From IMG/VR virus record IMGVR_UViG_3300020042_002437, positions 1-39,434 of that record: a DNA stretch of 39,434 nt; one strand, 5' to 3'. Under the pieces are notes generated by a model. It saw only the letters and a program-made list of their open reading frames with translations. It was not told the DNA's origin and made no database searches. Shown piece by piece: positions 1-29,428 of the stretch. This stretch comes from a virus. Taxonomy: Duplodnaviria > Caudoviricetes. A program made the translations under genes and the position numbers. Numbering within the stretch: the stretch's first letter is position 1; every line of letters starts with the position of its first letter.

Positions 1-167
1 CGAGCATTGACGAGAGCGGTGCGCTGCTGTCGGAAGACTACCACTTCTGCGAACTGTTTCGCAAGCACGGGGGGAAGATATACGCCCACCCCTTCGTGAA
101 ATTAGACCACGTTGGGACATACACCTACAACGGGGACATTTTGAAATCGGGCGGCAACCTAAAGTAA
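1..167 (+). CDS. 3' end of a GT-A/GT2-like glycosyltransferase-like protein (partial, not in ORF track)
   Basis: Frame from nt 3 reads SIDESGALLSEDYHFCELFRKHGGKIYAHPFVKLDHVGTYTYNGDILKSGGNLK* (TAA 165-167). It aligns with the C-terminus of 37800-38534 (GEDYLFCDRAREQGFEVWIDPTIKLGHMGVQEYEG). Confidence 0.75.
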   Translation, partial: SIDESGALLSEDYHFCELFRKHGGKIYAHPFVKLDHVGTYTYNGDILKSGGNLK

Positions 168-179
168 GGAGCAAGCGAC

Positions 180-776
180 ATGGAATTGAAAATGAATAAA
201 GCAGCGGCAGTTTTGAAACTGCTACGAAAAGGTTATTCTGCTAAGGAAATACAGGAACAGCTTGGGGTAAGCCTAAGCTACGTGCATCTACTAAAGAAGA
301 AGTTAGCAGAAGGTATAGGGGAAGTGGTAGAAACGGTGCGACAGACTGCCACAGAACACAATAACAAGATCAAAGAGATAATTACAGACGGAAAAGCACA
401 ATCTAAGACAACTATTCTTAGCATGACTCCGGAATTTGCCTTCTCAATATCGCAGGGTAGGCAGAAGCGCCGCGAGGAAGCAGAAGCAGAGGCAAAAGCT
501 AATGCTGACGTAGACGATATCCTTGACAAACGCGCAGCCACTTACGGTAGCTTCATTAACGTAGCGCTTTTTGCACAGGAAATGAAAGAACTCATCCGTG
601 GCGCCCTAGACGAACAAAATGCAGGTCTACAAGCAGACCATCAAGAAGCCCTTGATATGATAACGAGTAAGATTGCGCGTATCATCATTGGTGACTCAAA
701 TCATATAGATAGCTGGATTGATATAGCGGGGTATGCTACGTTAGTGGCTGATCGCCTCCAAGGGAAATCTAGATAG
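180..776 (+). CDS. N-terminal HTH plus C-terminal DUF6378-like domain protein
   Basis: HTH pattern LLRKGYSAKEIQEQLGVSLSYV. The C-terminal ILDKRAATYG...KIARIIIGD...DSWIDIAGYATL resembles phage DUF6378 (recalled). RBS AAGGAG at 166-171. Confidence 0.7.
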   Translation: MELKMNKAAAVLKLLRKGYSAKEIQEQLGVSLSYVHLLKKKLAEGIGEVVETVRQTATEHNNKIKEIITDGKAQSKTTILSMTPEFAFSISQGRQKRREEAEAEAKANADVDDILDKRAATYGSFINVALFAQEMKELIRGALDEQNAGLQADHQEALDMITSKIARIIIGDSNHIDSWIDIAGYATLVADRLQGKSR

Positions 777-777
777 C

Positions 778-1452
778 ATGACAGCATGGTCCTATAGCAG
801 TATCAAGACCTTCGACCAGTGTCCGAAGAAGTACTTCCACCTCAAGATTGTGAAGGACGTCAAGGATATTCCGGGGGAAGCTGCTGACTATGGGACCGCA
901 GTCCATGGAGCCGCCGAGTTGTTCATTAAGGATGGTACACCCATCCCTGAGAAGTTTTCTTACATGCGACCCATCATGGAGCCACTGGCTGCTAAGAAAG
1001 GTACAAAGCACACCGAGTTGCGGCTAGGTGTCAGGAAGACGGATACTGGTTACGAGCCTACCACCTTCTTTGCCAAGGATGTGTGGTGGCGCGGCATCGT
1101 CGATTTGCTGATCGTCAATGGTAGCACAGCTTATATGATTGACTACAAGACGGGCAAGAACGCCAAGTACGCAGACATGAAGCAGCTTGACTTAATGGCA
1201 GCGGCCACCTTCGTGCATTACCCAGAGGTGCAGAAGATCAAGTCAGCATTAGCCTTCGTGGTTAGCAACGAGTTCCCTAAGAAAGTACACGTACGAGAGA
1301 AGCAGGATGAGTATTTTTCTGTGTTTAACGACCAGTTAGATCAGTTGGAATCTGCCATGGATAATGGTATATGGAACGCCAAGACAAGCCCACTATGCGG
1401 ATGGTGCCCAGTTAAAAGCTGCGAACACTACAAGCCGCCACGGAGAAGATGA
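778..1452 (+). CDS. PD-(D/E)XK exonuclease, Cas4/RecB-like
   Basis: SYSSIKTFDQCP, GTAVH, E...RGIVDLL...IDYKTGK and QLDLMA motifs. C-terminal CGWCPVKSC completes a four-Cys set. Confidence 0.9.
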   Translation: MTAWSYSSIKTFDQCPKKYFHLKIVKDVKDIPGEAADYGTAVHGAAELFIKDGTPIPEKFSYMRPIMEPLAAKKGTKHTELRLGVRKTDTGYEPTTFFAKDVWWRGIVDLLIVNGSTAYMIDYKTGKNAKYADMKQLDLMAAATFVHYPEVQKIKSALAFVVSNEFPKKVHVREKQDEYFSVFNDQLDQLESAMDNGIWNAKTSPLCGWCPVKSCEHYKPPRRR

Positions 1453-1733
1453 TGGCACGGAACTACAGGAGCGAATACGACACATACCAAGGCAGCGAAC
1501 AGCAGAAGAAGAACCGAGCGCAGCGCAATGCGGCCCGTGCTAAGATGGCTAAAGCTGGTAAGGTACATAAGGGTGATGGCAAAGACGTTGCCCATACGAA
1601 AGCATTTGACAAAGGCGGCACTAACAAGACAGGGCTGCGTGTAGAAAGTAAGGCCACTAACCGCTCATTTAAGCGGGACAGCAAGGGCAACCTAGTATCG
1701 GAAGTGAGTACGCGAGAGCGCAAGAAGAAATAA
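1449..1733 (+). CDS. Small basic HNH-like protein
   Basis: GDGKDVAH...KGGTNK..LRVESKATNRS matches the phage HNH-like DVDH...GG.N...NR pattern, with Asp replaced by Ala. Confidence 0.65.
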   Translation: MMARNYRSEYDTYQGSEQQKKNRAQRNAARAKMAKAGKVHKGDGKDVAHTKAFDKGGTNKTGLRVESKATNRSFKRDSKGNLVSEVSTRERKKK

Positions 1734-1751
1734 TACCGCAAGGAGCAAACT

Positions 1752-3293
1752 GTGGAAATCATTGACAACAAGGCGCTGCTAGTCAGCGCTCAAGACCCGT
1801 CTGTCATCACGGATCATATACATAAGAGCGCTGCCGTTAAGGAAGGCGTGGTTGTCAAATGGGGACACACTGAAGCTGAGATACTAGCTGGGCTGGGGTT
1901 CATCGACACACCATCGCCCATGCTTAAGTCCTATGAGTGGACAGGTAAGCTAACTCCGTTCGAGCATCAAAAGGTTACAGCCTCTTTCTTGTCAATCCGC
2001 AAACGCGCATTCTGCTTCAACGAACAGGGTACAGGTAAGACAGCCAGCGTCATATGGGCTGCGGACTACCTCATGAAACGTGGTGATATCAAACGTGTGC
2101 TGGTGCTATGCCCACTTTCTATCATGAAATCTGCGTGGCAACAGGATTTGTTTAAGTTCGCTATGCACCGTTCGTGCAGCGTAGCGCATGGTGCCGCTAA
2201 GCAACGTGAGAAGATCATTGCAGCAGGGGCCGAGTTCGTCATCATTAACTTCGATGGGCTGGCTATCGTGAAGGACCAGATCATTGCCGAGGGGTTCGAC
2301 CTTATTGTGATCGACGAAGCAAACGCCTACAAAAATGCACAGACCAACCGTTGGAAAACAATTAAACAAATAGTTAACGCGCTGAATCCGCGTATCTGGA
2401 TGCTTACAGGTACGCCAGCAGCACAAAGCCCCCTTGATGCTTACGGCCTCGCTAAGTTAGCTGATGGCCCCAACTGCCCTAAGTTCTACGGTCAGTACCG
2501 CGAACAGGTTATGATGAAGGTGACCCAGTTCAAATGGGTTCCTAAGCCGCACTCGCAGGATGTGGTGCATAGTATTCTTCAGCCAGCCATACGGTTTGAG
2601 AAGAAGGATTGCCTTGACCTACCAGAAGTGACGCACATTGAACGCGAAGCGCCGCTCACCCCACAGCAGCAGAAATACTACAACAAGCTAAAGAGCCAGA
2701 TGCTGTTCGAAGCCGATGGCGAAGAGGTCAGCGCGGTGAACGCTGCCGCCCGTATTAACAAGCTACTCCAGATCAGCGGAGGCGCGGTATATACGGATAC
2801 TGGAGAAGTCCTAGAGTTCGACGTATCCAACCGACTGAACGTGGTGTTAGAAGTGATCGAGGAAGCCAGCAACAAGGTACTGGTCTTTGTGCCGTTTACT
2901 CACACCATTGAGTTGCTACGTGCCAAGCTAGGTAAAGCTGGTGTCCCTTGTGAGGTCATCAACGGTAAGGTGTCGATGAACAATCGCAGCGACATCATCC
3001 ACCAGTTCCAAACGCAACCCAACCCACATGTGCTTATCATTCAGCCACAGGCTGCATCGCACGGACTTACACTTACGGCAGCAGACACAATCATTTGGTA
3101 TGCCCCGGTGACAAGTGTAGAAACCTACCTCCAAGCCAATGCCCGTATTGATCGTCCCGGCCAGAAGAACGCCATGACCATCGTGCATATCAAAGGCAGC
3201 GAGGTGGAAGACCGCTTATACAATATGCTTCGCGGTAATATCGAGAACCACAAACGTATCATTGATTTATACAGACAAATGACGGAGGAATAA
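1752..3293 (+). CDS. SNF2-family (SF2) helicase/ATPase
   Basis: EQGTGKT (motif I), IVIDEA (II), LTGTP (III), HGLTLTAA (V), QANARIDRPGQ (VI). GTG start with AAGGAG RBS. Confidence 0.95.
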   Translation: MEIIDNKALLVSAQDPSVITDHIHKSAAVKEGVVVKWGHTEAEILAGLGFIDTPSPMLKSYEWTGKLTPFEHQKVTASFLSIRKRAFCFNEQGTGKTASVIWAADYLMKRGDIKRVLVLCPLSIMKSAWQQDLFKFAMHRSCSVAHGAAKQREKIIAAGAEFVIINFDGLAIVKDQIIAEGFDLIVIDEANAYKNAQTNRWKTIKQIVNALNPRIWMLTGTPAAQSPLDAYGLAKLADGPNCPKFYGQYREQVMMKVTQFKWVPKPHSQDVVHSILQPAIRFEKKDCLDLPEVTHIEREAPLTPQQQKYYNKLKSQMLFEADGEEVSAVNAAARINKLLQISGGAVYTDTGEVLEFDVSNRLNVVLEVIEEASNKVLVFVPFTHTIELLRAKLGKAGVPCEVINGKVSMNNRSDIIHQFQTQPNPHVLIIQPQAASHGLTLTAADTIIWYAPVTSVETYLQANARIDRPGQKNAMTIVHIKGSEVEDRLYNMLRGNIENHKRIIDLYRQMTEE

Positions 3294-3294
3294 A

Positions 3295-3564
3295 ATGACT
3301 GAGACTACAATGTTTGAACGCCCCCCAGTATTTAATTTTAAGGTGGGTGACCGTGTCGAGGTGAAAGAGCACCTGCACCTTAGAGCTACTGGCTGCACCA
3401 AGGGGTCATATGCCCTGACCTACCCTGAGGGTTTCACGGTAGTGGATATAATTTCGCCTAACAGACATACCCATGAATATCAGTGTGAACCAATCGTTGA
3501 AACACCCCATTCTAGAACGATGCTTATTGAAGAAAGATATCTCAAGGAGCTTGACACTGTATAG
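3295..3564 (+). CDS. Hypothetical protein (FKVGDRV SH3/KOW-like start)
   Basis: GGAGG RBS at the end of the helicase gene; fills the gap between neighbours. Confidence 0.7.
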   Translation: MTETTMFERPPVFNFKVGDRVEVKEHLHLRATGCTKGSYALTYPEGFTVVDIISPNRHTHEYQCEPIVETPHSRTMLIEERYLKELDTV

Positions 3565-3579
3565 TACGGGGTCTAGAAG
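3551..3579 (+). promoter_or_regulatory. Sigma70-type promoter
   Basis: TTGACA (3551-3556), 17-nt spacer, TAGAAG (3574-3579), upstream of the 3614 gene. Confidence 0.7.
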
Positions 3580-3613
3580 GGGACTACGGCAATAGCCGAG
3601 CAAGGAGCAAACC

Positions 3614-4018
3614 ATGTCAGAACCAGTACTAATCAACGACCTCGTGGCTGCGTACCGCAACATTCGTGCGGCGGTTGCAGCGGAGGAAGAAGCCCACGAT
3701 ACTAAACTTAGGGGTCTGAAAGACCAGTTGGAAATTATCTCCACTGAGCTTCTCAACTTCTGCAACTCGCAGAACCTCGACAGTGTCCGCACCCCTGCTG
3801 GCACTTTATCCCGCCGTGTCCAAACGCGATATTGGACAACAGATTGGGAACATATGTACAAGTTTATCGCAGACAACGATGTGCCTTTCGTCCTCGAAAA
3901 GCGTATTCACAATGGCAACATGAAGCAGTTTCTGGAGGAGAATCCGGACGTTCTCCCTATCGGTCTTCAGATCGACAACAAGTACGTAATCCAAGTCCGT
4001 AAACCAACTGAGAAGTGA
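3614..4018 (+). CDS. Conserved phage replication-module protein (N-terminal coiled coil)
   Basis: Strong RBS; coiled coil followed by SVRTPAGT...DW...F...LEKRI, typical of the gene preceding SSB in such modules. Confidence 0.75.
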   Translation: MSEPVLINDLVAAYRNIRAAVAAEEEAHDTKLRGLKDQLEIISTELLNFCNSQNLDSVRTPAGTLSRRVQTRYWTTDWEHMYKFIADNDVPFVLEKRIHNGNMKQFLEENPDVLPIGLQIDNKYVIQVRKPTEK

Positions 4019-4026
4019 GAATACCT

Positions 4027-4962
4027 ATGAGCAATATAACCATATTTGAAGAACCATCTAATGTCGCCACGGTGCACCGTGAGTCTCGTCGTATGGACCG
4101 TATGTCCAGCGGCGGTGGCGGAAGCACCATGCGCCGCATCCAGCTTAGCAATGGCCGCACTTTCAAGCGCGTCATCAATGGTGAGCAAATCGGTAAGGCC
4201 GTTAGCGACAACCTCGACGTCATCGTGGTAGACTGGCTCGTTGAGCCTTCGCGTAAATTCTATGCGGCTGCTTACGACAAAGATGCCAAGGCCACACTGC
4301 CTGACTGCTGGTCAAACGATGGTGTTGCGCCAGAAGCAGGAGCCAACAATAAGCAGAGTAAGGCATGTGCTTCATGCCCTAAGAACGTCAAGGGTTCCGG
4401 TTCCGGTGGTAAGGGTAAAGCTTGCCGCTACGAGCGCCGCCTTGCAGTCCTCGTTGCTGGTGATCCGACTGGTGATTTGTACCAGATTGCTATCCCGGGC
4501 GCTTCGCTGTTCAGTGACAACGATGGCAAAGTCTATGGCTTTGAAGGATACAAAAAGTTTCTTCTCGCCAGTAAACACGCTCTCGACACGGTGGTAACAC
4601 GCCTCGTCTATGATACCGAAGCAGACACGGCCAAGGTTGGGTTTAAACCTATCCGTCACTTGACCGAGGTAGAAGCAGCGTTTGTGGACGCAGCGCAGGA
4701 CGATCCCGCCACAGAGAAGTACACAATGCTGACTGCTGGTGCTATAGATACCACTAAGGCTATTGCTGCTCCTGCTCCTGTTGTCGCTATCGCCGCACCC
4801 ACTGTGAGCGTTAATCCGTTCGGTGATGACGATGACGAAGACGAAGTGCCAGCTACCCCAGTCAAACGGGCCGCTAAACCGAAGGTTGTTCCTGAGGTAA
4901 AGCCCGAACTGGCATCTGTAATGGGTGAGTGGCTTAAGGAAGAAGAGGATGACTTCGCATGA
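4027..4962 (+). CDS. Putative ssDNA-binding/recombination protein with Cys cluster and acidic tail
   Basis: PDCWS...CASCPKN...KACRY Cys cluster, Pro/Ala linker and acidic aromatic end EEEDDFA as in SSBs. ATG 4027 preferred to GTG 4015. Confidence 0.65.
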   Translation: MSNITIFEEPSNVATVHRESRRMDRMSSGGGGSTMRRIQLSNGRTFKRVINGEQIGKAVSDNLDVIVVDWLVEPSRKFYAAAYDKDAKATLPDCWSNDGVAPEAGANNKQSKACASCPKNVKGSGSGGKGKACRYERRLAVLVAGDPTGDLYQIAIPGASLFSDNDGKVYGFEGYKKFLLASKHALDTVVTRLVYDTEADTAKVGFKPIRHLTEVEAAFVDAAQDDPATEKYTMLTAGAIDTTKAIAAPAPVVAIAAPTVSVNPFGDDDDEDEVPATPVKRAAKPKVVPEVKPELASVMGEWLKEEEDDFA

Positions 4963-5192
4963 GTATGCGTGGTTACAGCATCCGTGTAGCCGAGGCTATC
5001 GGGGAGGCCGATATTAACCTCCTCGGGGTACAACTTGGGCGAGCTTGTCTTGCCCAAGATATCCCTGTCGCAGAAGTTGCGGAGAGCCTCGGGATTACAC
5101 GCCAAACGGTATATCACTGGTTTCTTGGGTTGAGTGAACCAAGAGGCAAATCATGTGAGGCCATCCAGTCCTACCTAGCTAATTTGGGTTGA
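4959..5192 (+). CDS. XRE/Cro-like HTH DNA-binding protein
   Basis: VAEVAESLGITRQTVYHWFLGLSEPR; ATGA overlap with the upstream gene. Confidence 0.85.
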   Translation: MSMRGYSIRVAEAIGEADINLLGVQLGRACLAQDIPVAEVAESLGITRQTVYHWFLGLSEPRGKSCEAIQSYLANLG

Positions 5193-5248
5193 GCTTTCAC
5201 AAAGAGCAAACGATAAGTGGGGGTTTCCCCGCAACGGTGAGTGATGCA

Positions 5249-8089
5249 ATGCAACAATATGATCTCTTAAGCCTCGTGCAGCCAGCCGGGGGCTGGTTCG
5301 CTATCACAGGTATCAAAGGGACAGGGAAAGACGCCGATGTCCGCCAAGAACTTGTAGCTACGCGGGAAGAAGCAGATGCTTTAATAGAGCGCTTTGTCGA
5401 TGCTGGCCGAAATGTATTCTTCGGGGTAGCCAAGTACACAACTGGTGATAACCGTAAGAAAGAGAACGTCCTTGGTCTCAAGGCGTTCTGGCTCGATGTA
5501 GACTGCGGCCCAACCAAAGCTGAACCCGACCCGAAGACCGGACGACCTGATGGTTACATAGACCAGAGTGCTGCCATAGCGGCGCTGCGTACTTTTTGCG
5601 AATCAGTAGGTCTTCCTGCTCCTACTATAGTAGACTCAGGTGGTGGTATCCACGTATACTGGGCGCTTACGGAAGAAATCACACGGCGGGACTGGGAACC
5701 TGTAGCCGAACGCTTCAAAGAAGTGTGCAAAACCCAGAACTTCTACGTCGATAATGCGGTGTTCGAAGTGGCACGTATCCTACGTGTGCCCGGTACATTT
5801 AACTTCAAAGAAGCAGAGCCTCGTCCGGTTGAGTTTATCCATGTGGGCAAGCCGACCTCCTTTGAGGAGATACGCTCCATCTTTGGGGTCAAGGCGCAGC
5901 CGACAATCTTCGATGAGGACTACCAACCGTCACCACGCCAACTGGCACTGACAAATGGTATAGGCTACAACTTCAGACAAATCATGCAGCGCACAGCTAG
6001 GGGTGACGGGTGTAACCAACTCCTACACGCGTACAAGCACCAAGATACCGTCAGTTACTATGAATGGTTCTACGCGCTGTCGGTGGCAGCTATGTGCGAG
6101 GACGCAGACACTGCGGTCCATATGATGTCGAAGGGCCACCCAGACTATGATCCGGAGTCCGTAGACAGAAAAGTAGAGACCATCCGCAAAGCAACTAGCT
6201 GCGCTAAGTTTCGTAGCGTTAACCAAGAGCTATGTGAGGGGTGTCCGCACCTCGACAAGATCAAAGGCCCCAAGGAACTGGGCAAAGTGGTCAAGGAGTC
6301 CAGCGAGGACTTCATCATAGTGGAAAACGAAGAGGGTGTAGCCGAGCATATTGACATCCCCAAGTATCCGTTCCCGTTTTACAGAGGTGATGGCGGTGGT
6401 GTTTGGAAGAAGCCGCCCAAGGATGATGAGGAAGCTGAGCCGAAGATGGTATACGCAAACGATTTCTATGTCGTGAAACGTATGTACGATCCCGGTGAGG
6501 GCGACTCCGCGCTTATGCGTGTACACCTACCGCAAGACGGGCTGCGGGAATTTACCGTTGCCATGTCCAAGGTTACCCAGAAGGATGAGCTTCGCAAGAT
6601 TCTCTCCGCTAACGGGGTGTATAGCTACGGCAAGCGTTTCGATACGCTGATGGAATATGTACACGCATCCGCTGAAAACTTACAAGATAGACAGAAAGCA
6701 GAAATCATGAGGCAACAATTTGGTTGGGTAGACGGTAACAGTCGGTTTGTTCTGGGCGATCAGGAGATGACCATTGACGGCAATATCTATTCGCCGCCGT
6801 CCAAGGCAACAGGCAAGCTAGCTAAGTTTATTGGCCCTGTCGGGTCGATGGATAAATGGAAAAGCGTATGGAACCTGTACGGTGAGGAGGGCATGGAAGC
6901 CCAAGCATTTGCCGCGCTCAGCGCGTTCGGGTCACCGCTGCTTAAGTTTCTTAACCAAACAGGGGCCGTCATCAACCTGTTTAACTCACACTCTGGTACG
7001 GGTAAGACCACCATCTTGAATATGGTGAATAGCGTCTACGGGCATCCTCAACAACTGCGCTTAAAAGAAATCGACACCATGAACGGTAAGCTTCAGTGGG
7101 TCGGCGTCCTCAACAATCTGCCAGCCACCATGGACGAGCTTACCAACGTCACATCTAAGGAATACTCAGACTTCTTATACTCGCTGTCGAACGGTAAGGG
7201 TAAGGAGCGCATGTTGGCCGGGGCCAACGAACTGCGTGAGAACAATACCACATGGCAGAACATCACGGTTTCGACGTCGAACTCTTCGTTTGTCGAGAAG
7301 TTGTCGATCTTGAAGGATAACCCAGAAGGTGAGCTTATGCGCCTTATTGAATACCCTATAGGGTTGGTAGAATCCATCAATACCGCAAATGCCAAAGAGC
7401 TATTTGATAAGGTGCTGTTCTCTAATTACGGCCACGCCGGACCTATTTACATCCGCTTTGTACTAAACAACATGGAGTATGTGGTGGGTAAGTGCCTCCA
7501 GATGCAGGAGAAGATTGACCGTGAACTTCAGCTTCTACCCAAGGAGCGCTTCTGGTCAGCCACAGTAGCAGCTAATATCGAAGGCGGTATCCTCGCCAAG
7601 AAGTGCGACCTAATCAACTGGGATATGAAGCGCATATACAACCACGCTTGCGATATGGTCGAGCGGCTGCGACAAGATACTAAGGCACCACTTAACGGTG
7701 TCGAGCAGGTTATAGGTGACTACCTCTACCGTAATATGCAGAATATCTTAGTTGTGAACGACAAGTCAGACCGGCGCACTAAGCTGCCCTCCGCGCCTAT
7801 ACGCGAACCAAAGGGTGAGTTGCTGATCCGTATCGAGCCGGATACCGAGATGATGTTTTTGATTGCCAAGCCGTTTCGGGAATACTGCGTCAAGTACCAG
7901 ATCAACTACAACGACACTCTAGACAAGTTAGAGGCACAAGGTCGGTTAGTGAAGCGTGACAACAAGCGTATGTCCAAGGGTATGGCTGTCTCAGGTGATA
8001 ACGTCCACTGCCTATGGTTTAAGCTGGACCCAGACTTTGTGAGCGTCAATGAGTACGCCAAGGAAGATGGTATAGTCGATGCAGATTGA
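5249..8089 (+). CDS. Primase-helicase: AEP/RepB-like primase plus DUF927-type P-loop helicase
   Basis: WLDVDC, SGGGIHVYW and ARILRVPGTFN primase motifs; Cys-rich middle (SCAKF...CEGCPH); FGW, SGTGKTT Walker A and MDE Walker B. ATG 5249 preferred to TTG 5189. Confidence 0.88.
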   Translation: MQQYDLLSLVQPAGGWFAITGIKGTGKDADVRQELVATREEADALIERFVDAGRNVFFGVAKYTTGDNRKKENVLGLKAFWLDVDCGPTKAEPDPKTGRPDGYIDQSAAIAALRTFCESVGLPAPTIVDSGGGIHVYWALTEEITRRDWEPVAERFKEVCKTQNFYVDNAVFEVARILRVPGTFNFKEAEPRPVEFIHVGKPTSFEEIRSIFGVKAQPTIFDEDYQPSPRQLALTNGIGYNFRQIMQRTARGDGCNQLLHAYKHQDTVSYYEWFYALSVAAMCEDADTAVHMMSKGHPDYDPESVDRKVETIRKATSCAKFRSVNQELCEGCPHLDKIKGPKELGKVVKESSEDFIIVENEEGVAEHIDIPKYPFPFYRGDGGGVWKKPPKDDEEAEPKMVYANDFYVVKRMYDPGEGDSALMRVHLPQDGLREFTVAMSKVTQKDELRKILSANGVYSYGKRFDTLMEYVHASAENLQDRQKAEIMRQQFGWVDGNSRFVLGDQEMTIDGNIYSPPSKATGKLAKFIGPVGSMDKWKSVWNLYGEEGMEAQAFAALSAFGSPLLKFLNQTGAVINLFNSHSGTGKTTILNMVNSVYGHPQQLRLKEIDTMNGKLQWVGVLNNLPATMDELTNVTSKEYSDFLYSLSNGKGKERMLAGANELRENNTTWQNITVSTSNSSFVEKLSILKDNPEGELMRLIEYPIGLVESINTANAKELFDKVLFSNYGHAGPIYIRFVLNNMEYVVGKCLQMQEKIDRELQLLPKERFWSATVAANIEGGILAKKCDLINWDMKRIYNHACDMVERLRQDTKAPLNGVEQVIGDYLYRNMQNILVVNDKSDRRTKLPSAPIREPKGELLIRIEPDTEMMFLIAKPFREYCVKYQINYNDTLDKLEAQGRLVKRDNKRMSKGMAVSGDNVHCLWFKLDPDFVSVNEYAKEDGIVDAD

Positions 8090-8273
8090 GGGCGTAGACT
8101 ATGAAGTTAACTGGCGCGCATTCCAGAAGGGCACTTCTTTGTTCTTCCCTTGCCTCCATATACCACGCGCTCGGGCACAACTTATGGTAGTCATCAAACG
8201 CCTACGCATCAAGATATTGGTCAAGCCCTCAATCGAAAGTGGAATTAGGGGTTTACGGGTATGGCGAATGTAA
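8079..8273 (+). CDS. Small hypothetical protein, last gene of the replication block
   Basis: Overlaps the primase stop; 64 aa ending GLRVWRM. Confidence 0.75.
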   Translation: MQIEGVDYEVNWRAFQKGTSLFFPCLHIPRARAQLMVVIKRLRIKILVKPSIESGIRGLRVWRM

Positions 8274-8280
8274 GTATACG
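8252..8280 (+). promoter_or_regulatory. Predicted sigma70-type promoter for the small RNA
   Basis: TTTACG (8252-8257), 17-nt spacer, TATACG (8275-8280). Predicted start about 8287, at the base of a hairpin. Confidence 0.55.
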
Positions 8281-8286
8281 GACCTC

Positions 8287-8359
8287 GGAAGTTTGCTCCT
8301 TCCGCTCGGTGCATTGCATCACTCACTACCCCCGGTTGCTCACTCAGCCGGGGGTTTTT
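8287..8359 (+). ncRNA. Candidate multi-target antisense (anti-RBS) small RNA
   Basis: Hairpin GGAAG-tttgctc-CTTCC. 8291-8301 is complementary to the RBS motifs at 166-176, 1740-1750 and 3602-3612. 8310-8326 is the exact reverse complement of 5237-5253. Ends in an intrinsic terminator. Confidence 0.7.
8329..8359 (+). terminator. Rho-independent terminator
   Basis: CCCCCGGTTG-ctcact-CAGCCGGGGG followed by TTTTT, at the convergence of the two gene blocks. Confidence 0.9.
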
Positions 8360-11300
8360 ATTGTCCTTCAGCTTCCAGAAGCTGCCGGATACGCTCATCC
8401 TGTAGCATATCCCGTATCGGTATTTTCTCGTTAACCCCAAGACCGTAGCTCTTGTCAGAAGCATCTTTCTCCTTGGCTTTGAACGATTTCCGCTTGGTGT
8501 CTTTGGACATTGAGTTCGACGGGTAGTTTTCGTCGTACACGTTAATGTCGTATTCCACCTGCTGCAACGCCAGTTCATTCTTAGGCGATGGGTCTGCATC
8601 GTACTTGAGGATAGCGCGGTACCGCCGATCAAGAAGCTCGGTCTTCTGTGCCGCAACTTCCCGCTCAACGTCACCCGCCAGCATATCAAGCTGCATGTTA
8701 CGTGATGTCTCGGCGTCCTTGAAGCCAAGGCCCTGCAAAATAGTTTTGGGTGTTGTGTAGTAGCTAGGGTCCTTAAGCTGGATGTCCTTGTCTTTCCCAA
8801 TCTTCAACCCTTCCTCTTGGAGACGTAGGGCTTTCAGCGGGTTGCGTATAACCGCTGGGACAGCCGCTTCTATCGCTTGGTCAATATCCCCAGCGTTCCA
8901 CGCCTTCACCGCCCTATCGTACGAAATCAAGACACTACCAAACGGGCCAAGTGCTATTTTTCCCATAGCTTCAAAAGCCCGAACTTCAGATGTATCACCC
9001 TTTAACTGCAAATTACTCCCGATAAACGGCAGGTCGCCCATGGCAACAGAACCAGATATATCCACATCAAAAAGTGCCGGTATACCCATGTCCGCAGCGG
9101 TTGCTAGATTGGCTGCTGACTTATCGCTAAGGCCAAACGCTTTCTGCATGGTACTACCCATACCAAATGTATCGTCAATCCAAGTGGATCGGATATAGTA
9201 TTCCATATCCTTTTTACCTAGTTCGTTCCCGTTCTCATCAGCATACTTAAGGAACTGACGCTCGACGGTTTTCTCCCCGAGGACACCCTCCTTGGTATCC
9301 TTCTCCTCATCATCATCGTCCTCAAGTAGGCTTTCGACAAACTTAACAAGGGTATAAGCGCCATAACCCAAAGCGTAAAACTGAGTAGAGCGAATACCGC
9401 CGTATAGCATGGTGACGGCAGCGGAACCAAAGAACACACGGGCTGCGGCTGCTTTACCTTCCTTATTTAAGAAGGGTATCATACCAACGAAGCTGCGTAG
9501 CAGTAACGACGACAGCGAATGTATATACGAGGTCATCTGAAGCGCAAAACGACCCGCAGGAGCCTTAGCGAAGCGTGACTTATTCCAGTTTGTGAAGTCA
9601 AACATAGCCTTGTTAGTTAAGTCAGCCGCTAACTCACGAGCTTCTATACCCGCTTGCTCTGCTGTCTTACCTTGGCCTATTGCCCGTTCGTAGGCCAGAT
9701 CAAAGCTGGACATATACATGATCGAACGCCCGATTGTTTCGGTAGAATGGAACATGAAACCCATGGCATTCATCGCGGCAGCAGAACCCCGCTGGCCTGC
9801 GGTTAGTAATTCACCACGGCGTACCGCCTGCTGGAAATTAAAGTCTCCGGTAGGTGTGTTGCTGCGATCATATAGCTGTGCGCTTGAGGCAAAAGTGCTC
9901 TCAATGACATCATGGTCTTGCGCGTACTCCCATGCAGCCACCGTCTGCTTGTAACGATCCGGGTCGTTCTTCTTAAGGCTACGCATATAGGCGCTGTTTT
10001 CAAACTTAAACTCTGGAGCTTGCAGCGCAAGGTTACCATCCTCATCACGGAACGGGTTGGGGATTTCTCGGCCTGCCAAGAACGAAGTCGTGTACCGCGC
10101 AGCCATAGCAATAGTCTTAGGTTCCCCAAATTCGCCAGATAGGACTGGAAGCCCTAAAGTATGCAACTGGGTAAGGTTAATCATAGCAGAGGCTGCTGAA
10201 GACAAGTGATGGTAGAACGTAACCTTGGACCCAAATGCTATAAATGCGTTAACGGCATTAAGGAAGGCGCTATTCGTGTCAGGAGCCATCACGCTCTTTA
10301 CCCGTTCTTCAATTTCAGACCTGAGCGCGTCGCGGTAGGGTGTCAGTTCGTCGCTTTCGCTTTCTGCTTTAGCTTCTCCAATGATGTTCTGAAATTTGTA
10401 GTTATACGCCAGACGTCCAAGTTGGTTCGCTGATGCTACTGCCGTAGCAGCAAACGTGCGAAGCGCATCGGTACTAAAACCAGTTACAAACTTGCGGTGG
10501 ACAAAACGCCGCCGCATGTCTGCCTCAGGCAGTGCGGTCAGGTACATCTGGAAGATGAGGTCGCGCAAGCCCTCTATATCGCCATCTTGAACCTTAGGTT
10601 CACCCTTGGTATTTTTACCGTCGAGGGCATCCAAAATACCTTTGAGCGCTGAACTAGCGTCTTTGCTAGCGATTGTGTTGCGGAGGTCCGCACGGCTAGT
10701 ACCCGCTACCTGTGGACGGGTGTCTTTGTTAGCTTTAAGTTGGTCCTGCAATGCCTTTATTTCTGCGGCAGACTCCCGCATATAGAAGTCGTTACCCACA
10801 CTAAGCCAATACTCCCCGAACCGCTTAACGGGGAAGTAGATCGTGCGCTCCCGAGCCTTATTAAACATCTGCTCAACGGAAGACTTAAGTTTTACAGCAT
10901 CGTTGGAGTCAAACTTAGCGTCATCAATCCGCTGCATAAGCAGGCGGTAATGCTCATTGAAGTTGGCGCGGTGGAAGTCACGAGCAGCCTTGAAGATTTT
11001 CTTACCTTCTGGCGGCAAGTCGTTCCAACCTTGGACGGTGATTGGCTTTCCATCTTTATCAAGTACAAGGTTGCCCTTGTCATCTTTAAGTGTACCACCA
11101 AAATACAGGTCCTTAATGGCTTCCTTACGTCTGGTGATCTGCCCCTTCAGGCTTGTCCGTTTACCCGGGCTAGTTTCTGTAGCTAAACTAGCCTCAAGCT
11201 CTTTAAGCTTGGAGTCGATACGCATGTACTCCACCGCAGTCGCAGCCAAGCTCGGGTCTGCATCCAGCATGTTTGAGTACATGATATTGTCATCTAGAGT

Positions 11301-14300
11301 TGTATTACCATCTGGGTTCCGCGCAGCAAACGCTGCCCATTCTTGCTCAAGCGCACTGGCCCGCCGCACGATACGGTTGACGTACGGAATATATTCCTCC
11401 CGCATCATAGTATCGATCTTGCCAATCGACTTCATACCAGCAAGCTTAGCCAAACGGAAAACATCTTCGATCTGTTGGAAGCCAAGTACGAAGTTATATA
11501 AAGAAAGCGGCATACTCTGAGTAAGAGATGCTATGATACCACTATTGGCACCCGGGTTCTGCATAGCCTCCACAAGGCGCTTAATAAGCCCCTTGGTTTC
11601 GCTGTTGTTGCGGCTCTGGATAATGCGCTTCTGAAGCTTATTGACGTCCCTACCTCGGATACCAGCCGCAGCTTCAAGACGTTTAATCTGCGCCTTAGTC
11701 AGCTTAACCGAAACAGCTTCCTCAACATTGGCGTCAGTTAGGGGTTCCGTGCCACCTCCATCGCCTGCTCCAAGGTCGCCCCGTTCTCCAGTGCGGTCAC
11801 GACCTTCATAAGATGGGCTGAGTAAGGATTCCCCGGTGCCTCCTTCTCCGCTAGGTCCGCGTACGTCCCTAGCGTTCCTATCGCCATCTCCATCGGATGT
11901 TTGCTCTGCATCGCCATCCGTAAATTTGTTTCCGCGATACTCGATGCTAATGTCTGAGTTTTGGCCATTAAAAAGCTCCACGCCAAGTTTAACGATGTCG
12001 GCGTAATCTGCCGCAATCGTGTCTGCAAAATTGTCCTTAAACCGACGATAGGCGAACCCTGTGTCAGCTTCCATGTTTAAGTCTATATCCTGATACTCTG
12101 CTGGGAATCTAGCATTATGGCTACGCTCCTTGTAGTGTGCAAGCTCATGGATCATAGTCCCGAAGATGCCGTACCCAGCGCGCAATCCGTCCGCATACTT
12201 GGGTACCAGTGGGTTAATAAAGCTACCAGAGAATGGTAGCCGGATCGAGACACCACGATACTCAGGGTCAAATGATACACCGATAGCTTCATCGCGTAAG
12301 CCGGGATAACCCATAACACGCGCAACTTCGTCACGTAGCTTGAGGAATGCCTCACCATTAAAGCTCATGAAGTCATCAAAGCGCTCGCCAAACTGGCGGC
12401 GCATAAAGTCCGGGATTGGCATTTTCTCGCCGGTAGACTTTATAACTACGTCAGCGTTGTCGTGGACCATAACCAGATTGGTATCAATTAGATCAGGGTT
12501 TATTCTTAGGTCATTTGCGCTTGGGATGCCCGCCTTTAGTTCTTCAGGGGTTAGCTCAGGCATACGTTGCCCGTTGACCAATAACGAACCATCGTCGTCT
12601 ATCTTAATAATGTCACCTTCTGCAATCCGCGTAAAGGCCGTATCTACGACTGGGATGTCAGGTGTGAGGTCTATAGGTGCAGTAAGCTGCCCATTTTCAT
12701 CGAAGTACTGGATAACTCCAAAAGACGTAGCCTCACCCGCACGACTCTTATACGCATATACGGCGTCGATATACGCCTTAACTTTATTAAAGTCGGCCTT
12801 GGCGTCGTCGGTAAAACTCTGGCGGTTAAAGTTAAATGGATAGCCCGGTTCATCTGGCTTCACAGACGGTACGATGTCTACGTAGAACCGGTACGGAACG
12901 GGATCGCTATATATGTTGGATGGGTCTTTACTAACCGAGTTTGAGAATTGCCACAACCCGTTCGATAGGATGTGCATATTCTGACCGTATTTTTGGGTCG
13001 TTTGGTTACGTGTTACATAGACCTTGGCGGTACCCCATGGGAACTTGACCCCAACAAACTGGGTGTAATCTTGGATTGGGAAGTTGCTACCAATGTCCAC
13101 CGCATAAGCACGCGAACCTGTATAGTCCGAGAACGACACCTCAATATCCGCAAATAGCGGGCTAAGCATTAAAGACGGAACACTTTGTGCTTGCCACGGT
13201 AGCGGGTTAATTTTGTAATCCCCTGACTCCTCAGGGATAGTCAACTGGATAATGGTACCATGGCCGTTAGGGAACGCCGCATAGTCAGCGGGTTCTAAGT
13301 CACGAATATCTATGAACGGGCGGGCATCAGGGTCATCCAGTCCATCAAAAAGCTGTTCGCCTGTAGCGTTAAGTTCAGCAATACGCCCATCACGCGCAGT
13401 AACCACGCGGATGTTCTTGTTGGCATACAGAAAGAGCATCTTGGCAATACCGAAGCCGCCAGCGTTCTTGTCGCCTTCCTTGTCGGTACCAGCAATCTGG
13501 AGGAACTTACCGCCTAACAGTTCGGGTGTCATACCGATACCATTGTCTTTAACCGTCAGGGTGCGCTCATCCCGCGAGATAGATATTTCGATCTTACCCT
13601 GCGTAATCTGCCCCTTGTCCACCGCAGTGCGGGTGGCGTCGAACGAGTTCTGCAACACTTCCTTGATGCAAACCTGACCCATATTGGTTGGGTCACCATA
13701 AAGCTGCGGGCCAAGCATCTTGGCCATGCGCTTCGTATTGATACCCGGAGTAGCTCGGATTGTTTCGTACTCAGGGCTATACGGTGTAGCCTGCTCATCT
13801 AGTTCTTCTTTCGGCATGGCATCGACTTCTGCCTGCGCCATGTTGAAGATTTTCTCGGCCACAGTCTTACCGGGCTTACTGTTAATAACCTTTTTAACAG
13901 CTTTACCCTTGGCTCCCTTATCCCCAGTCGCCTTGATCTTACTTGGGCCGCGTGCCTTTGAGGGCTTTGCTCCTGCCGTAGTAGGCGCAGCAACGGATAC
14001 CGGGGCGGCTTGCGTAGCAGCAACTTGTTCTTTCCCCCATTGTTGGCCTTCTTTGTAAGCAGCGAGGACTTCGGGGCTACCCCGCTCAAAGGCAAGAACT
14101 TGTTCGTCAGTTAGAGGCTTAATATCGGGGTTCTTTGCTTCCCGCACACCTTCACCAAACATACCGTGTTCGGCGGTGTTAACCATATAACCACGGCGCT
14201 CGGCTTCTTTGTACCCAAAACGCGTTAGGTTGTCATAGATTTCCTGTGGGGTGTAATCTGCGGGGTCATAAATCTCTTTCTCTTCACGGCTAAGCGGAGC

Positions 14301-16871
14301 TTCCTGTACAGATTTTGGTACAACTGTAGTAGGGCCTGTTTTCACAGCTTTAGTGGGAAGTGGCCCCTCAGTGTCTATCATACGGCGAATAGCTTCTTCA
14401 ACTGGAATGCCAGCTTCAAGCAGGGCGGTTATGTCACCCATAAACTGACCAGTTTCTATGCTAGCTAATCTAGCTTTGCCGGTGACGTTATTTTTTACTA
14501 CCCGCACTGGGAAGGGGGCGCCATCAAGGTCAAACGCATCGTAATCTGTCGTCAAAATATCTGATACAACGGAGCCATCTTTAACGCGAACATTCCTAAT
14601 GCCATCATTATCATTGCGTACAAATCTTTGCTGTGTATTATTAGGATTTCCTATTTCTTCTACAACACTTTCTACCCAGCCGTCTTCGGGACTAAACTGA
14701 GCAGGCGTAGTTTCAGCCGTAGCGGCCTCGGCCACCGTAGTGCGCGAGGTAGACGGTGCCTTCTTGGGAACTGGCTTACCAGTGAGTGTCTCCAAGCCAC
14801 GGTCAAGCACTGACCCAATGGCATCATATGGATCGACTTCAGGGCTTTGGACTATGATACGCGCAGCCAGCGTCTTCTGCTGGGAGTTTAGCTCGTTCTT
14901 CTTGTTAAGAACACTTCCGTAAGGTTCTACAAAATCAAGAGCCGAGGCTGCAAATACCCGCTCGATGATGGGTACCGCAGCTTGAACTTGCTTAGCCGTA
15001 GGCTCAATTAGTGTACCGACTCCTGTTCCCGTGCCAGTTGTAGGAATTGATACGCTAGATACAGACCCGTCCAATCGTCCATCGTCATCCGCTCCAGCGA
15101 CTGTAGTACCGGCTTTGGTCGCCAAGGATTCTCGATCAGTAGCAGTGCCTGCTCCACTTCCTCCGCCGACATCCACTCCGGTACCAGTTGTAACTGGGAC
15201 ATCTAGAACTCCTCTGGTTCCTGATACTATGTTAGCAGTAGCAAGGTTAAATAATGCTTCAGCGCTATCCTCGACAAATTTAACAGCATCGTTCTTCTTC
15301 ATGCCGGGGTTAGCCTTCATAACCTTCCCGACTTGTTCCGCTGCAAGGCTCTGAAACTCTGCCATAACAGCCGCAGGGTCTACTCCCTGCTTCTTGGCTT
15401 TCCCCATGGCTTTTTGTGCGACTTCAGTGACGCCGCGCAGACCGCTACCAACGATACCACCTATGAGTGCGCTGTACCCAACGCCTTCTGTAACGTCACG
15501 GTCTTCGTCGTATAGTCCCTTGGCGATCACGTTGGTGCCAAGTTGTACGCCACCTTCTTGGGCTGCTTCCCCGGCACCGCGCACAGCAATACGCCCAGCC
15601 GCACGGCTTTCAACCGCATTTAAGGCACGCGAGATAGACTTACTAATTATGGTAGGGTCTACGCGGCCAGCAGTACCACGGCGCACGATATCGGTAACGG
15701 TATCCAAAGTAGCGCCACGTTTAGCGACAGGGAGACTTTCAAAAATACGTCTTGCCGCGCCAACTTCAGTAGCGCCCATACCTGCATTTAACACGATAGC
15801 AGTAAACGCATTCGCGTCAGGGATTACTTTACCTGTCCGCTGCTCAGTAGCTTGGATATCTTGAATGCCCTGTTGCGCACCCTGCACGGTGCCAAGCCCG
15901 TACTCAAGTGGGCGGGCAGCTTTAGCAATAGCTTCTGCCCGCGCTGCGCCTACCAGACCTTTACCGGCACCAGCAGCCTTAGACAACAAACCGGGGCCTA
16001 AGAACGTACCGACACTACCTACACCGCCACCAACATCCGCAAGGAACTTTGCAGTGGCGTCATACTTAAGGGCTTCACCCTGTGCGCCAAACGCATCGGC
16101 AGCAAACTTACCTGCTGCGTCGAGGTCGGACTTACCCGCAGCCTTGAGAGTTTCAGCGCCGGGGAGGCCAAATGTTCCAAGGCCGTAACCCGCAGTAGCC
16201 TCAATGGCACCGGGGATACCGGCAATTATTTCAGTAGGAACACGTAAGGTAGAACTGAGAGTCTCACGGAACTTGTTTGCTTTTGGAGCCTTAAGCCCCG
16301 TTTTGGTTATAGTATCAAACTCATTCTGGAGTGCTTTTACTTCTCTACGAGCAAGGTCTGCTTTCCCTTTGTACGCGGCAAAAGCTTCCGCAGCACCACG
16401 ACCTTGGTTTTCCTTAGCTGCTTTTGCAGCAAGTTTATCAAACTTAGCAGCATCCGCTGCAAACTTCTTCTGGGTAGTCGCAATCTGCTTTTGCCGTGCA
16501 GCCAGTTCCTTAGCGGTGTACACCTCAGGGGCTTTGATCTCATTACCCATGACGGTATCATATATACCACCAAAGAAACCACGCTCGGCTTCAAGTTGAG
16601 CTTTGGCCTGTTTCTGGGCGGGTGTTAGAGCGGGGGCTGCGGGCGCAGCGGTAGGTACATCATCCCGAGCCACGCCATCCATTGGCACGGCGTTAGCAGG
16701 TACGGCAGTAGGCGCAGCAATAGGCGCGGTGGGTTTTACCGCGAGCCTCTTAAAGACCTCCGCTTTTGGCAGGTCCGAATAAAATTTACGATGGATCGCA
16801 TCCGCCAACTCGACGTCGCTCATATCGTTGTACTGAGGGTACTGGCGACGGAAGTCGGCAAGATTATCCAT
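8358..16871 (-). CDS. Giant polyvalent internal virion/ejection protein with GHKL ATPase, HEXXH zincin-like and PLxRFG-like regions
   Basis: 2837 aa, last gene of the internal-protein cluster. Motifs: KEVLQNSFDA, KDNGIGM, GGFGIA, HGT; MIHELAH; YFPVKRFG (10810-10839); long helical C-terminus. Confidence 0.8.
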   Translation of the reverse strand: MDNLADFRRQYPQYNDMSDVELADAIHRKFYSDLPKAEVFKRLAVKPTAPIAAPTAVPANAVPMDGVARDDVPTAAPAAPALTPAQKQAKAQLEAERGFFGGIYDTVMGNEIKAPEVYTAKELAARQKQIATTQKKFAADAAKFDKLAAKAAKENQGRGAAEAFAAYKGKADLARREVKALQNEFDTITKTGLKAPKANKFRETLSSTLRVPTEIIAGIPGAIEATAGYGLGTFGLPGAETLKAAGKSDLDAAGKFAADAFGAQGEALKYDATAKFLADVGGGVGSVGTFLGPGLLSKAAGAGKGLVGAARAEAIAKAARPLEYGLGTVQGAQQGIQDIQATEQRTGKVIPDANAFTAIVLNAGMGATEVGAARRIFESLPVAKRGATLDTVTDIVRRGTAGRVDPTIISKSISRALNAVESRAAGRIAVRGAGEAAQEGGVQLGTNVIAKGLYDEDRDVTEGVGYSALIGGIVGSGLRGVTEVAQKAMGKAKKQGVDPAAVMAEFQSLAAEQVGKVMKANPGMKKNDAVKFVEDSAEALFNLATANIVSGTRGVLDVPVTTGTGVDVGGGSGAGTATDRESLATKAGTTVAGADDDGRLDGSVSSVSIPTTGTGTGVGTLIEPTAKQVQAAVPIIERVFAASALDFVEPYGSVLNKKNELNSQQKTLAARIIVQSPEVDPYDAIGSVLDRGLETLTGKPVPKKAPSTSRTTVAEAATAETTPAQFSPEDGWVESVVEEIGNPNNTQQRFVRNDNDGIRNVRVKDGSVVSDILTTDYDAFDLDGAPFPVRVVKNNVTGKARLASIETGQFMGDITALLEAGIPVEEAIRRMIDTEGPLPTKAVKTGPTTVVPKSVQEAPLSREEKEIYDPADYTPQEIYDNLTRFGYKEAERRGYMVNTAEHGMFGEGVREAKNPDIKPLTDEQVLAFERGSPEVLAAYKEGQQWGKEQVAATQAAPVSVAAPTTAGAKPSKARGPSKIKATGDKGAKGKAVKKVINSKPGKTVAEKIFNMAQAEVDAMPKEELDEQATPYSPEYETIRATPGINTKRMAKMLGPQLYGDPTNMGQVCIKEVLQNSFDATRTAVDKGQITQGKIEISISRDERTLTVKDNGIGMTPELLGGKFLQIAGTDKEGDKNAGGFGIAKMLFLYANKNIRVVTARDGRIAELNATGEQLFDGLDDPDARPFIDIRDLEPADYAAFPNGHGTIIQLTIPEESGDYKINPLPWQAQSVPSLMLSPLFADIEVSFSDYTGSRAYAVDIGSNFPIQDYTQFVGVKFPWGTAKVYVTRNQTTQKYGQNMHILSNGLWQFSNSVSKDPSNIYSDPVPYRFYVDIVPSVKPDEPGYPFNFNRQSFTDDAKADFNKVKAYIDAVYAYKSRAGEATSFGVIQYFDENGQLTAPIDLTPDIPVVDTAFTRIAEGDIIKIDDDGSLLVNGQRMPELTPEELKAGIPSANDLRINPDLIDTNLVMVHDNADVVIKSTGEKMPIPDFMRRQFGERFDDFMSFNGEAFLKLRDEVARVMGYPGLRDEAIGVSFDPEYRGVSIRLPFSGSFINPLVPKYADGLRAGYGIFGTMIHELAHYKERSHNARFPAEYQDIDLNMEADTGFAYRRFKDNFADTIAADYADIVKLGVELFNGQNSDISIEYRGNKFTDGDAEQTSDGDGDRNARDVRGPSGEGGTGESLLSPSYEGRDRTGERGDLGAGDGGGTEPLTDANVEEAVSVKLTKAQIKRLEAAAGIRGRDVNKLQKRIIQSRNNSETKGLIKRLVEAMQNPGANSGIIASLTQSMPLSLYNFVLGFQQIEDVFRLAKLAGMKSIGKIDTMMREEYIPYVNRIVRRASALEQEWAAFAARNPDGNTTLDDNIMYSNMLDADPSLAATAVEYMRIDSKLKELEASLATETSPGKRTSLKGQITRRKEAIKDLYFGGTLKDDKGNLVLDKDGKPITVQGWNDLPPEGKKIFKAARDFHRANFNEHYRLLMQRIDDAKFDSNDAVKLKSSVEQMFNKARERTIYFPVKRFGEYWLSVGNDFYMRESAAEIKALQDQLKANKDTRPQVAGTSRADLRNTIASKDASSALKGILDALDGKNTKGEPKVQDGDIEGLRDLIFQMYLTALPEADMRRRFVHRKFVTGFSTDALRTFAATAVASANQLGRLAYNYKFQNIIGEAKAESESDELTPYRDALRSEIEERVKSVMAPDTNSAFLNAVNAFIAFGSKVTFYHHLSSAASAMINLTQLHTLGLPVLSGEFGEPKTIAMAARYTTSFLAGREIPNPFRDEDGNLALQAPEFKFENSAYMRSLKKNDPDRYKQTVAAWEYAQDHDVIESTFASSAQLYDRSNTPTGDFNFQQAVRRGELLTAGQRGSAAAMNAMGFMFHSTETIGRSIMYMSSFDLAYERAIGQGKTAEQAGIEARELAADLTNKAMFDFTNWNKSRFAKAPAGRFALQMTSYIHSLSSLLLRSFVGMIPFLNKEGKAAAARVFFGSAAVTMLYGGIRSTQFYALGYGAYTLVKFVESLLEDDDDEEKDTKEGVLGEKTVERQFLKYADENGNELGKKDMEYYIRSTWIDDTFGMGSTMQKAFGLSDKSAANLATAADMGIPALFDVDISGSVAMGDLPFIGSNLQLKGDTSEVRAFEAMGKIALGPFGSVLISYDRAVKAWNAGDIDQAIEAAVPAVIRNPLKALRLQEEGLKIGKDKDIQLKDPSYYTTPKTILQGLGFKDAETSRNMQLDMLAGDVEREVAAQKTELLDRRYRAILKYDADPSPKNELALQQVEYDINVYDENYPSNSMSKDTKRKSFKAKEKDASDKSYGLGVNEKIPIRDMLQDERIRQLLEAEGQ

Positions 16872-29416: not shown

Positions 29417-29428
29417 GTTAGTCTTGTC

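Follow-up and report, generated by a model that had tools for sequence, protein, structure and literature searches.

A predicted 73-nt phage RNA complementary to a leader tag at early-gene starts and to the primase start

We describe a predicted small RNA, encoded at the end of the early arm of an uncultured phage, that probably acts in trans as an antisense RNA, repressing early mRNAs that carry a shared leader tag as well as the mRNA of the phage primase. This reading draws on sequence comparison: the seed of the RNA and, less strictly, its second module change together with their targets across relatives, which suggests that one RNA pairs with these messages. A first-pass annotation had proposed a modular antisense RNA directed at the phage's own early-gene starts, and this core proposal is supported by seed–leader co-variation, by the confinement of the tag to the early arm, by co-variation in the stems and by the features of the + strand. 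Its further idea of an early-to-late switch is plausible.

Genomic setting and sample of relatives

The window, the whole 39,434-nt stretch analysed here, is a linear virus record of 39.4 kb with an estimated completeness of 63%; near-complete relatives have genomes of 58–63 kb. The + strand arm (180–8273) encodes an exonuclease, an SNF2 helicase, a weakly Gam-like gene, an HTH gene and a primase-helicase identified as DUF927 by Pfam PF06048, and the − strand arm carries virion, lysis and modification genes. Two of the relatives, G001 and G003, encode a family A DNA polymerase. A tRNA/tmRNA scan found none. In the late arm, the 2837-aa protein (8358–16871, −) has a DarB-like antirestriction match at residues of about 2000–2270 and a C-terminus that is highly variable among relatives. 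The tail-gene stretches at 27957–30645 and 37800–38534 (−) contain two phrog_7084 paralogues, a sulfotransferase-like gene, a 2OG-Fe(II) oxygenase and a glycosyltransferase-like gene.

Primase patterns find matches in about 4000 stored viral stretches, which points to a very large uncultured group. Relatives' loci were collected via the primase, and 239 were examined. A 64-aa gene follows the primase in 190 of them, most others ending too early; these 190 extend past this small gene, and removing redundancy over the first 70 nt leaves 138. The small gene itself has no PHROG or Pfam match. All counts among relatives given below are inflated by relatedness, and the independent changes behind them amount to a handful. 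The cultured relatives are distant, with best primase identities of 29% (Rollin) and 24% (RHph_TM3_14A group), and the element is absent from both that were examined. A primase search of species genomes returned a single match, in a Polaromonas metagenome bin.

A conserved element with a predicted promoter, hairpin and terminator

The element (Table 1) folds better than any of 200 shuffles. A promoter-like TTTACG-N17-TATACG, a GGAAG/CUUCC hairpin and an intrinsic terminator with a U-run had been placed in the gap between the convergent gene blocks, and each of these is present. The −10 box does lie in that gap; the −35 box does not, being within a real conserved gene (8079–8273), so that the gap starts at 8274.

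Table 1. Coordinates of the predicted RNA, its parts and its candidate target sites in the window
Feature	Position	Strand	Details
64-aa conserved gene, family not assigned	8079..8273	+	last gene of the early arm
Predicted −35 box TTTACG	8252..8257	+	within the last codons of the 64-aa gene
Predicted −10 box TATACG, without last T	8275..8280	+	17 nt after the −35 box
Small RNA (predicted; about 73 nt with inferred termini)	8287..8359	+	fold z = −4.4; position and layout conserved
Hairpin 1, GGAAG/CUUCC, with module 1	8287..8303	+	loop UUUGCUC at 8292–8298; stem includes the anti-SD tail CUU
Module 2 (17 nt), antisense to the SD and start codon of the primase	8310..8326	+	exact antisense match
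Intrinsic terminator	8328..8359	+ only	stem 8328–8355 plus U-run
Module 2 target: start of DUF927 primase-helicase	5237..5253	+	17 nt exact with 8310–8326; ATG 5249
Tag AAGGAGCAAACT before SNF2 helicase (GTG 1752)	1740..1751	+	12 nt exact with 8290–8301
Tag AAGGAGCAAAC before gene 3614 (weakly Mu Gam-like)	3602..3612	+	11 nt exact with 8291–8301
Tag AAGGAGCAAGC before gene 180 (HTH plus DUF6378)	166..176	+	9 nt exact (166–174); 11 with one G-U

Codon choice favours a genuine −35 box: the leucine codon that forms it is TTA or TTG in 112 of 114 loci, compared with 182 of 588 (31%) for the other leucine codons of the same gene. At the −10 position, relatives have a TA-rich hexamer at 16–19 nt, which reads TATACT in other clades. 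The last T of this box is found in 11/54 loci of the window's group, 11/11 of the CGA group and 10/13 of the CTA group; the window's promoter fails the last-T rule of a generic promoter scan and is consequently unlisted there. A −10 box without the last T is reported for Alphaproteobacteria in the available text of PMC8407463, and because most of the window's group likewise lacks that base, we would guess at an alphaproteobacterial host.

The terminator is present in 129 of the 138 non-redundant loci, after the same small gene, and its U-run overlaps the stop codon of the 2837-aa late gene. A CTCC seed occurs in 114 of these loci (GCTCC in 101). Its absence from the remaining 24 of 138, and from Rollin and RHph_TM3_14A, means that the seed is not universal in this architecture. 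What supports both an own promoter and an intrinsic terminator is their conservation. The hairpin plus U-tail is compatible with Hfq or ProQ dependence.

Both stems co-vary. Across 27 hand-picked aligned sequences, two rows of which are out of register, two-sided changes affect 4 of 6 pairs in hairpin 1 and 5 of 11 in the terminator stem; the overall 9 of 17 exceeds 500/500 shuffles and all slid controls, a control that ignores relatedness. Several features assign the element to the + strand: the U-run lies there, an A-run precedes the stem in only 1/128, and G-U pairs in the stems number 71 on + versus 45 on −. The − strand also folds (z = −3.0). At window 8358–8360 there is no − strand terminator, so late transcripts could read through as a fully complementary strand that titrates the small RNA.

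No covariance model of Rfam 15, c4 and alphaproteobacterial sRNAs included, matched at the gathering cut-off in the window or in L034, L064, L092 and L098; the best of seven weak matches, mostly on the terminator, scored 19.5 bits against a cut-off of 42. The earlier view that no described family matches thus agrees with the Rfam search at this cut-off.

Other interpretations of the region were set aside. The open reading frames 8239–8448, 8261–8434 and 8099–8800 were rejected as genes because linker lengths vary out of frame among relatives, and a transcription attenuator was rejected because no co-directional gene follows the terminator, the next gene being convergent. A third module in the terminator loop, matching the start of gene 4027 in L031 and L035, was not accepted because phages that lack this loop also conserve ATGAGCAA, as protein sequence. 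Some relatives elaborate the gap after the small gene: L048 and L058 have a second 5′ hairpin with an anti-SD loop there, L061 and L063 have CU-rich loops, and L059 and L079 hold a second seed copy in the terminator loop.

Complementarity to early-gene starts

When 8240–8370 was searched for exact antisense matches to the + strand, the four longest matches to the early arm all fell on early-gene starts, recovering every complementarity previously listed (the leaders of SNF2, gene 3614 and gene 180, and the primase start). Exact matches of at least 9 nt occur in 4 of 43 start regions, a number reached by 6 of 5000 dinucleotide shuffles. By our own arithmetic, a 17-mer match is expected about 3e-4 times. 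Matches of at least 12 nt anywhere in the window arise in 1034 of 5000 shuffles, and the SNF2 12-mer alone is therefore little proof.

A genome-wide pairing check had been suggested, with early starts expected on top, and this is what it gave. Ranked by pairing energies that include opening costs, the six best of 43 start regions all belong to early + strand genes: primase (−21.9 kcal/mol), gene 3614 (−11.9), the HTH gene (−7.6), gene 180 (−7.2), SNF2 (−7.1) and gene 3295 (−6.2). Since the best late gene reaches −5.6 kcal/mol, only the primase and gene 3614 stand clear by energy alone.

Module 1 had been described as loop-exposed throughout. This is correct for the seven loop nucleotides, whereas G8291 and CUU 8299–8301 are in the stem. 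The loop UUUGCUC corresponds mostly to the tag-specific part, and the remaining anti-SD sequence is held in the stem. Six extra pairs claimed between 8304–8309 and the gene-3614 leader do form in the window but do not hold in relatives: L024 and L044 share the window's gene-3614 leader, yet pair at 4 and 0 of the 6 extra positions.

Upstream of gene 3614 lies a promoter, TTGACA-17-TAGAAG (3551–3579, +). In relatives its −35 box forms half of a palindrome, TTGAC-NNN-GTCAA in the CGA clade and imperfect in the window, which is likely an operator, perhaps for the HTH gene at 4959.

An early-gene tag that changes with the seed

Counting GGAGCAA within 20 nt of starts in six genomes, with gene calls made by a custom script, we found the tag at 42 of 169 early starts and at 1 of 219 late starts; plain GGAG is found at 99/169 and 85/219, respectively. 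In the five seed-matched genomes the tag marks 41/128 early starts; G005 has its own tag on just 3/41 (p = 0.11). Replication and recombination genes, the targets proposed at first, are therefore included in a wider set of about a third of early starts. In G001, tagged genes encode a DUF2201 protein, an AAA ATPase, a Holliday-junction-resolvase-like product, SNF2 and a Gam-like product, and the DNA polymerase is untagged. A gap precedes 36 of 46 tagged genes and 30 of 77 untagged ones. Where the tag departs opposite a U of the seed, the replacement is G, which retains a G-U pair, 16 times, and C or T 8 times.

At gene 3614, 92 loci combine a seed with a GGAG leader, and in 75 of them the trinucleotide following GGAG agrees with the seed. 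By seed class, the match holds in 54/59 loci for CAA, 10/10 for CGA and 8/13 for CTA (2 more by G-U). The SNF2 leader follows the seed in 40/44 loci. On a primase tree (FastTree, midpoint root, no formal test), the CGA state occupies one branch, CTA two or more and CAAC three, with single cases of ATTT and AAA, and seed–leader matches are spread over several separate branches. Misfits at gene 3614 comprise the L098/L103/L191/L204/L242 branch as well as L141, L173 and L234; in the L098 branch another leader, GAAGGAGCTA, matches the seed instead.

The leader of gene 4027 served as an internal control. It agrees with the seed of the same phage in 0/19, 1/11 and 0/13 loci, but carries GGAGCAA in 6/11 and 8/13 loci with a non-CAA seed. 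That this gene shuns its own seed while using GGAGCAA elsewhere argues that the tag is selected relative to the RNA. The seed is thus complementary to translation starts and kept by selection, as in a trans-acting repressive sRNA. Comparison of the intergenic region in relatives, also advised at the outset, showed modules changing with target leaders, module 2 less strictly.

A second module complementary to the primase start

For module 2, we considered as close relatives the 22 loci with a primase identity of at least 67%. In 21 of these, the RNA's own primase start ranks in the top 2% of early-arm windows; the most likely start, ATG 5249, is kept in all close relatives. Compensatory two-sided changes occur at two positions in L034 and at one in L044–L047, leader changes in L030 and L040 are tolerated as G-U pairs, and L029–L035 show a split arrangement aimed at the same primase site. 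The linkers of L034, L044, L236 and L146 prefer their own primase start. In two of these loci the pairing sequence is unrelated to module 2: that of L236 pairs with its own primase start at −29.9, the best of 829, and that of L146 also pairs best with its own. The window's module 2 pairs about equally well with the L034 and L044 leaders and with its own.

The pairing breaks down in some cases. L144 has lost the match, L024/L170 and L129 have one broken pair each, and L050 and L218 combine a window-type RNA including module 2 with an unrelated primase start; these two are probably mosaics or recombinants at the arm junction. Beyond the close clade, a primase match ranks in the top 1% in only 3 of 70 loci. 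By these comparisons, module 2 is a clade-level add-on, real in the window's clade.

In L048, L054 and L056, where module 2 is lacking, the primase begins with ATGGAGCAAACT, so that its start-codon region is matched by module 1 itself. In the window's clade, a hairpin of a G-run and a C-run (window 5215–5233) immediately precedes the ribosome site of the primase; the CGA clade, whose primase has no clear SD, has a similar one (L089 and L092 leaders).

Proposed mechanism and alternatives

In the mechanism that we favour, a promoter of its own would let the host sigma-70 polymerase transcribe the RNA, with a possible contribution from early read-through, given that the element shares the early arm's terminator. 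The open loop UUUGCUC would contact the tag-specific GAGCAAA first; the stem would then open, allowing CUU to cover the remainder of the Shine-Dalgarno site. As contact begins with the tag-specific bases, ordinary GGAG leaders would be spared. Module 2 would supply a longer, separate site for the primase, which has no tag. Ribosome loading would be blocked at tagged sites and at the primase start, pairing over the SD and start codon being an established way in which sRNAs repress translation. Untagged early genes, most of which overlap their upstream neighbour, would follow by translational coupling.

The chances appear even that a stable RNA, rising with genome copy number, acts, after a delay, as a brake on the early and replication proteins. 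The RNA promoter and the early promoter at 3551 are both sigma-70-like, and any delay would therefore come from build-up of stable RNA and rising copy number, not from a late promoter. We put forward slightly more tentatively a tag-and-reader regulon whose modules can be gained and lost, with gene 4027 out of its range; the same logic would explain the SAS tags discussed below.

The same pairing could instead come from the 3′ terminus of the early-arm mRNA, working in cis or once processed. The element does coincide with the one strong terminator of the arm and immediately follows the last early gene, and the window's promoter lacks the last T; but the codon choice at the −35 box (112/114) and the −10 hexamer at a fixed distance indicate an own promoter, and tags lie up to 20 kb away, past another promoter at 3551. 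We consider this origin unlikely. A little less likely again is that the pairing serves immunity, silencing a quiet resident genome or excluding superinfecting kin in the manner of c4. Seed alleles divide the group into classes, as heteroimmune c4 alleles do in the available text of PMC12197685. Against this, a search for tyrosine integrases of family PF00589 found none in 5/5 near-complete relatives and found one in 14/14 control genomes. In addition, 44 scanned early-arm proteins of G001 and G003 (a subset) gave no match to an integrase, ParA or CI-type repressor, and the single primase match among species genomes is in a metagenome bin. The latent or carrier state once suggested for this phage is likewise unsupported, given the lack of a tyrosine integrase in all five genomes; G001 and G003 also have a polymerase of their own.

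An improbable alternative is that a protein, such as a RegB-like nuclease or RegA-like repressor, reads the tag, and that − strand late read-through provides a sense decoy. The RegB requirement for GGA plus an A-rich run over 11 nt, as given in the available text of PMC1702504, resembles GGAGCAAAC; the terminator does not stop − strand transcripts, and the − strand folds. The promoter, the U-run and the G-U bias nevertheless all indicate the + strand, and a protein would have to switch specificity with each seed allele and, in addition, copy an unrelated primase start. Among the scanned phage proteins, general family searches, which left many early genes without a family, named no RegB-like nuclease. 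The element might also be only a terminator with generic anti-SD look-alikes, its matches being chance or a by-product of a favoured ribosome site. The frequency of 12-nt matches in shuffles would fit this, as would the fact that GGAGCAA is an ordinary leader in other clades. The 17-nt primase match and the co-varying stems speak against it, and the early-only tag, the co-variation of the seed with leaders kilobases away and the pairing of module 2 make it very unlikely.

Relation to known systems

An antisense RNA that represses tagged early mRNAs, our preferred reading, has partial precedents. The c4 RNA of P1/P7 is a phage RNA whose loop pairs near the RBS and blocks translation; it targets the antirepressor mRNA of a temperate phage, and its alleles differ between related phages (available text of PMC12197685 and PMC8201110). 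The element described here shares the loop-borne complementarity to a ribosome-binding region, but it would address the primase and, in each genome, some ten early starts at scattered sites rather than an antirepressor mRNA, in phages in which no integrase was found, and it has no Rfam match. SviR of the PLE satellite, 210 nt long and aimed partly at the helper phage (accessible part of bioRxiv 10.1101/2022.04.08.487710), is similar in being one small RNA with two seed regions and two target sets that pairs near 5′ leaders; ours is a 73-nt phage RNA directed at the phage's own genes through one shared tag. The phage RNAs covered in the accessible sections of a 2025 review (PMC12197685) have one phage mRNA or host genes as target, and the same sections describe the general kind of bacterial trans-acting repressive sRNAs with anti-SD seeds.

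These bacterial sRNAs resemble the element in having a promoter, a seed hairpin, a U-tailed terminator and short pairing with several leaders. Here, by contrast, a near-identical tag occurs in the same genome and co-evolves with the seed, and no Rfam family matches. AbcR and the cuckoo RNAs are families of such bacterial RNAs.

In T4, early mRNAs marked by GGAG and an A-rich extension are similarly shut off at the RBS, in the available text of PMC1702504 and PMC3014915, but the readers RegB and RegA are proteins, whereas here the predicted reader is an RNA whose seed changes with the tag. Early shut-off in lytic phages is known from these proteins, and a tag-reading RNA would be a further way to achieve it. 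If our interpretation is correct, an RNA reading a genome-wide tag would help to time the phage programme in a very large uncultured group, and the 73-nt element with its natural orthogonal seed–tag pairs would be useful for synthetic control.

Start-associated sequence (SAS) tags are reported for cluster K mycobacteriophages and cluster EF Microbacterium phages in the available text of PMC3203893 and PMC7302621, respectively. Like these, the tag described here is an over-conserved extended RBS on non-structural genes, mostly after gaps (42/169 versus 1/219; 36/46). It differs in sequence and hosts, sharing only AGGAGC with the 13-base SAS consensus.

Our literature search, which covered few subscription papers, turned up neither this RNA nor an anti-SAS RNA. 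Six supplementary files of PMC10690425 (candidate viral RNAs) contained no motif match; its files 1, 2 and 4 lie outside that set and may hold the element.

A reversed SAS in K1 mycobacteriophages

The function of SAS, left open in the available text of PMC3203893, has been open since 2011, and the idea of an RNA reader offers a cheap test of these unexplained motifs in a cultured phage. The same portion of that paper notes one reversed SAS, attached to no gene start, in four K1 phages. We found that the reversed SAS of Adephagia, Anaya, LastHope and Amelie lies within a hairpin loop behind a conserved promoter-like site, in a region that is conserved and non-coding. The Adephagia hairpin at 58,660–58,715 (L284:30660–30715) is long (z = −6.1), bears the reversed SAS in its 10-nt loop and is located in a 432-bp gap. 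Two homologues scanned gave no Rfam match.

The hairpin region is present in 193 phage records, in 169 of them over most of its length. Among 11 aligned sequences, the anti-SAS loop is intact in 4 and replaced by another CU-rich loop in 3; it is absent in Pharb, TribleTrouble and MarkPhew, and the aligned Pixie stretch ends before the loop. Pixie (K3; 22000–61147 only) contains no reversed SAS within two mismatches. As an SAS reader, the K1 hairpin is thus a lead that does not cover all of cluster K. TTG and TAGACT boxes lie upstream of the hairpin in all 11 aligned sequences.
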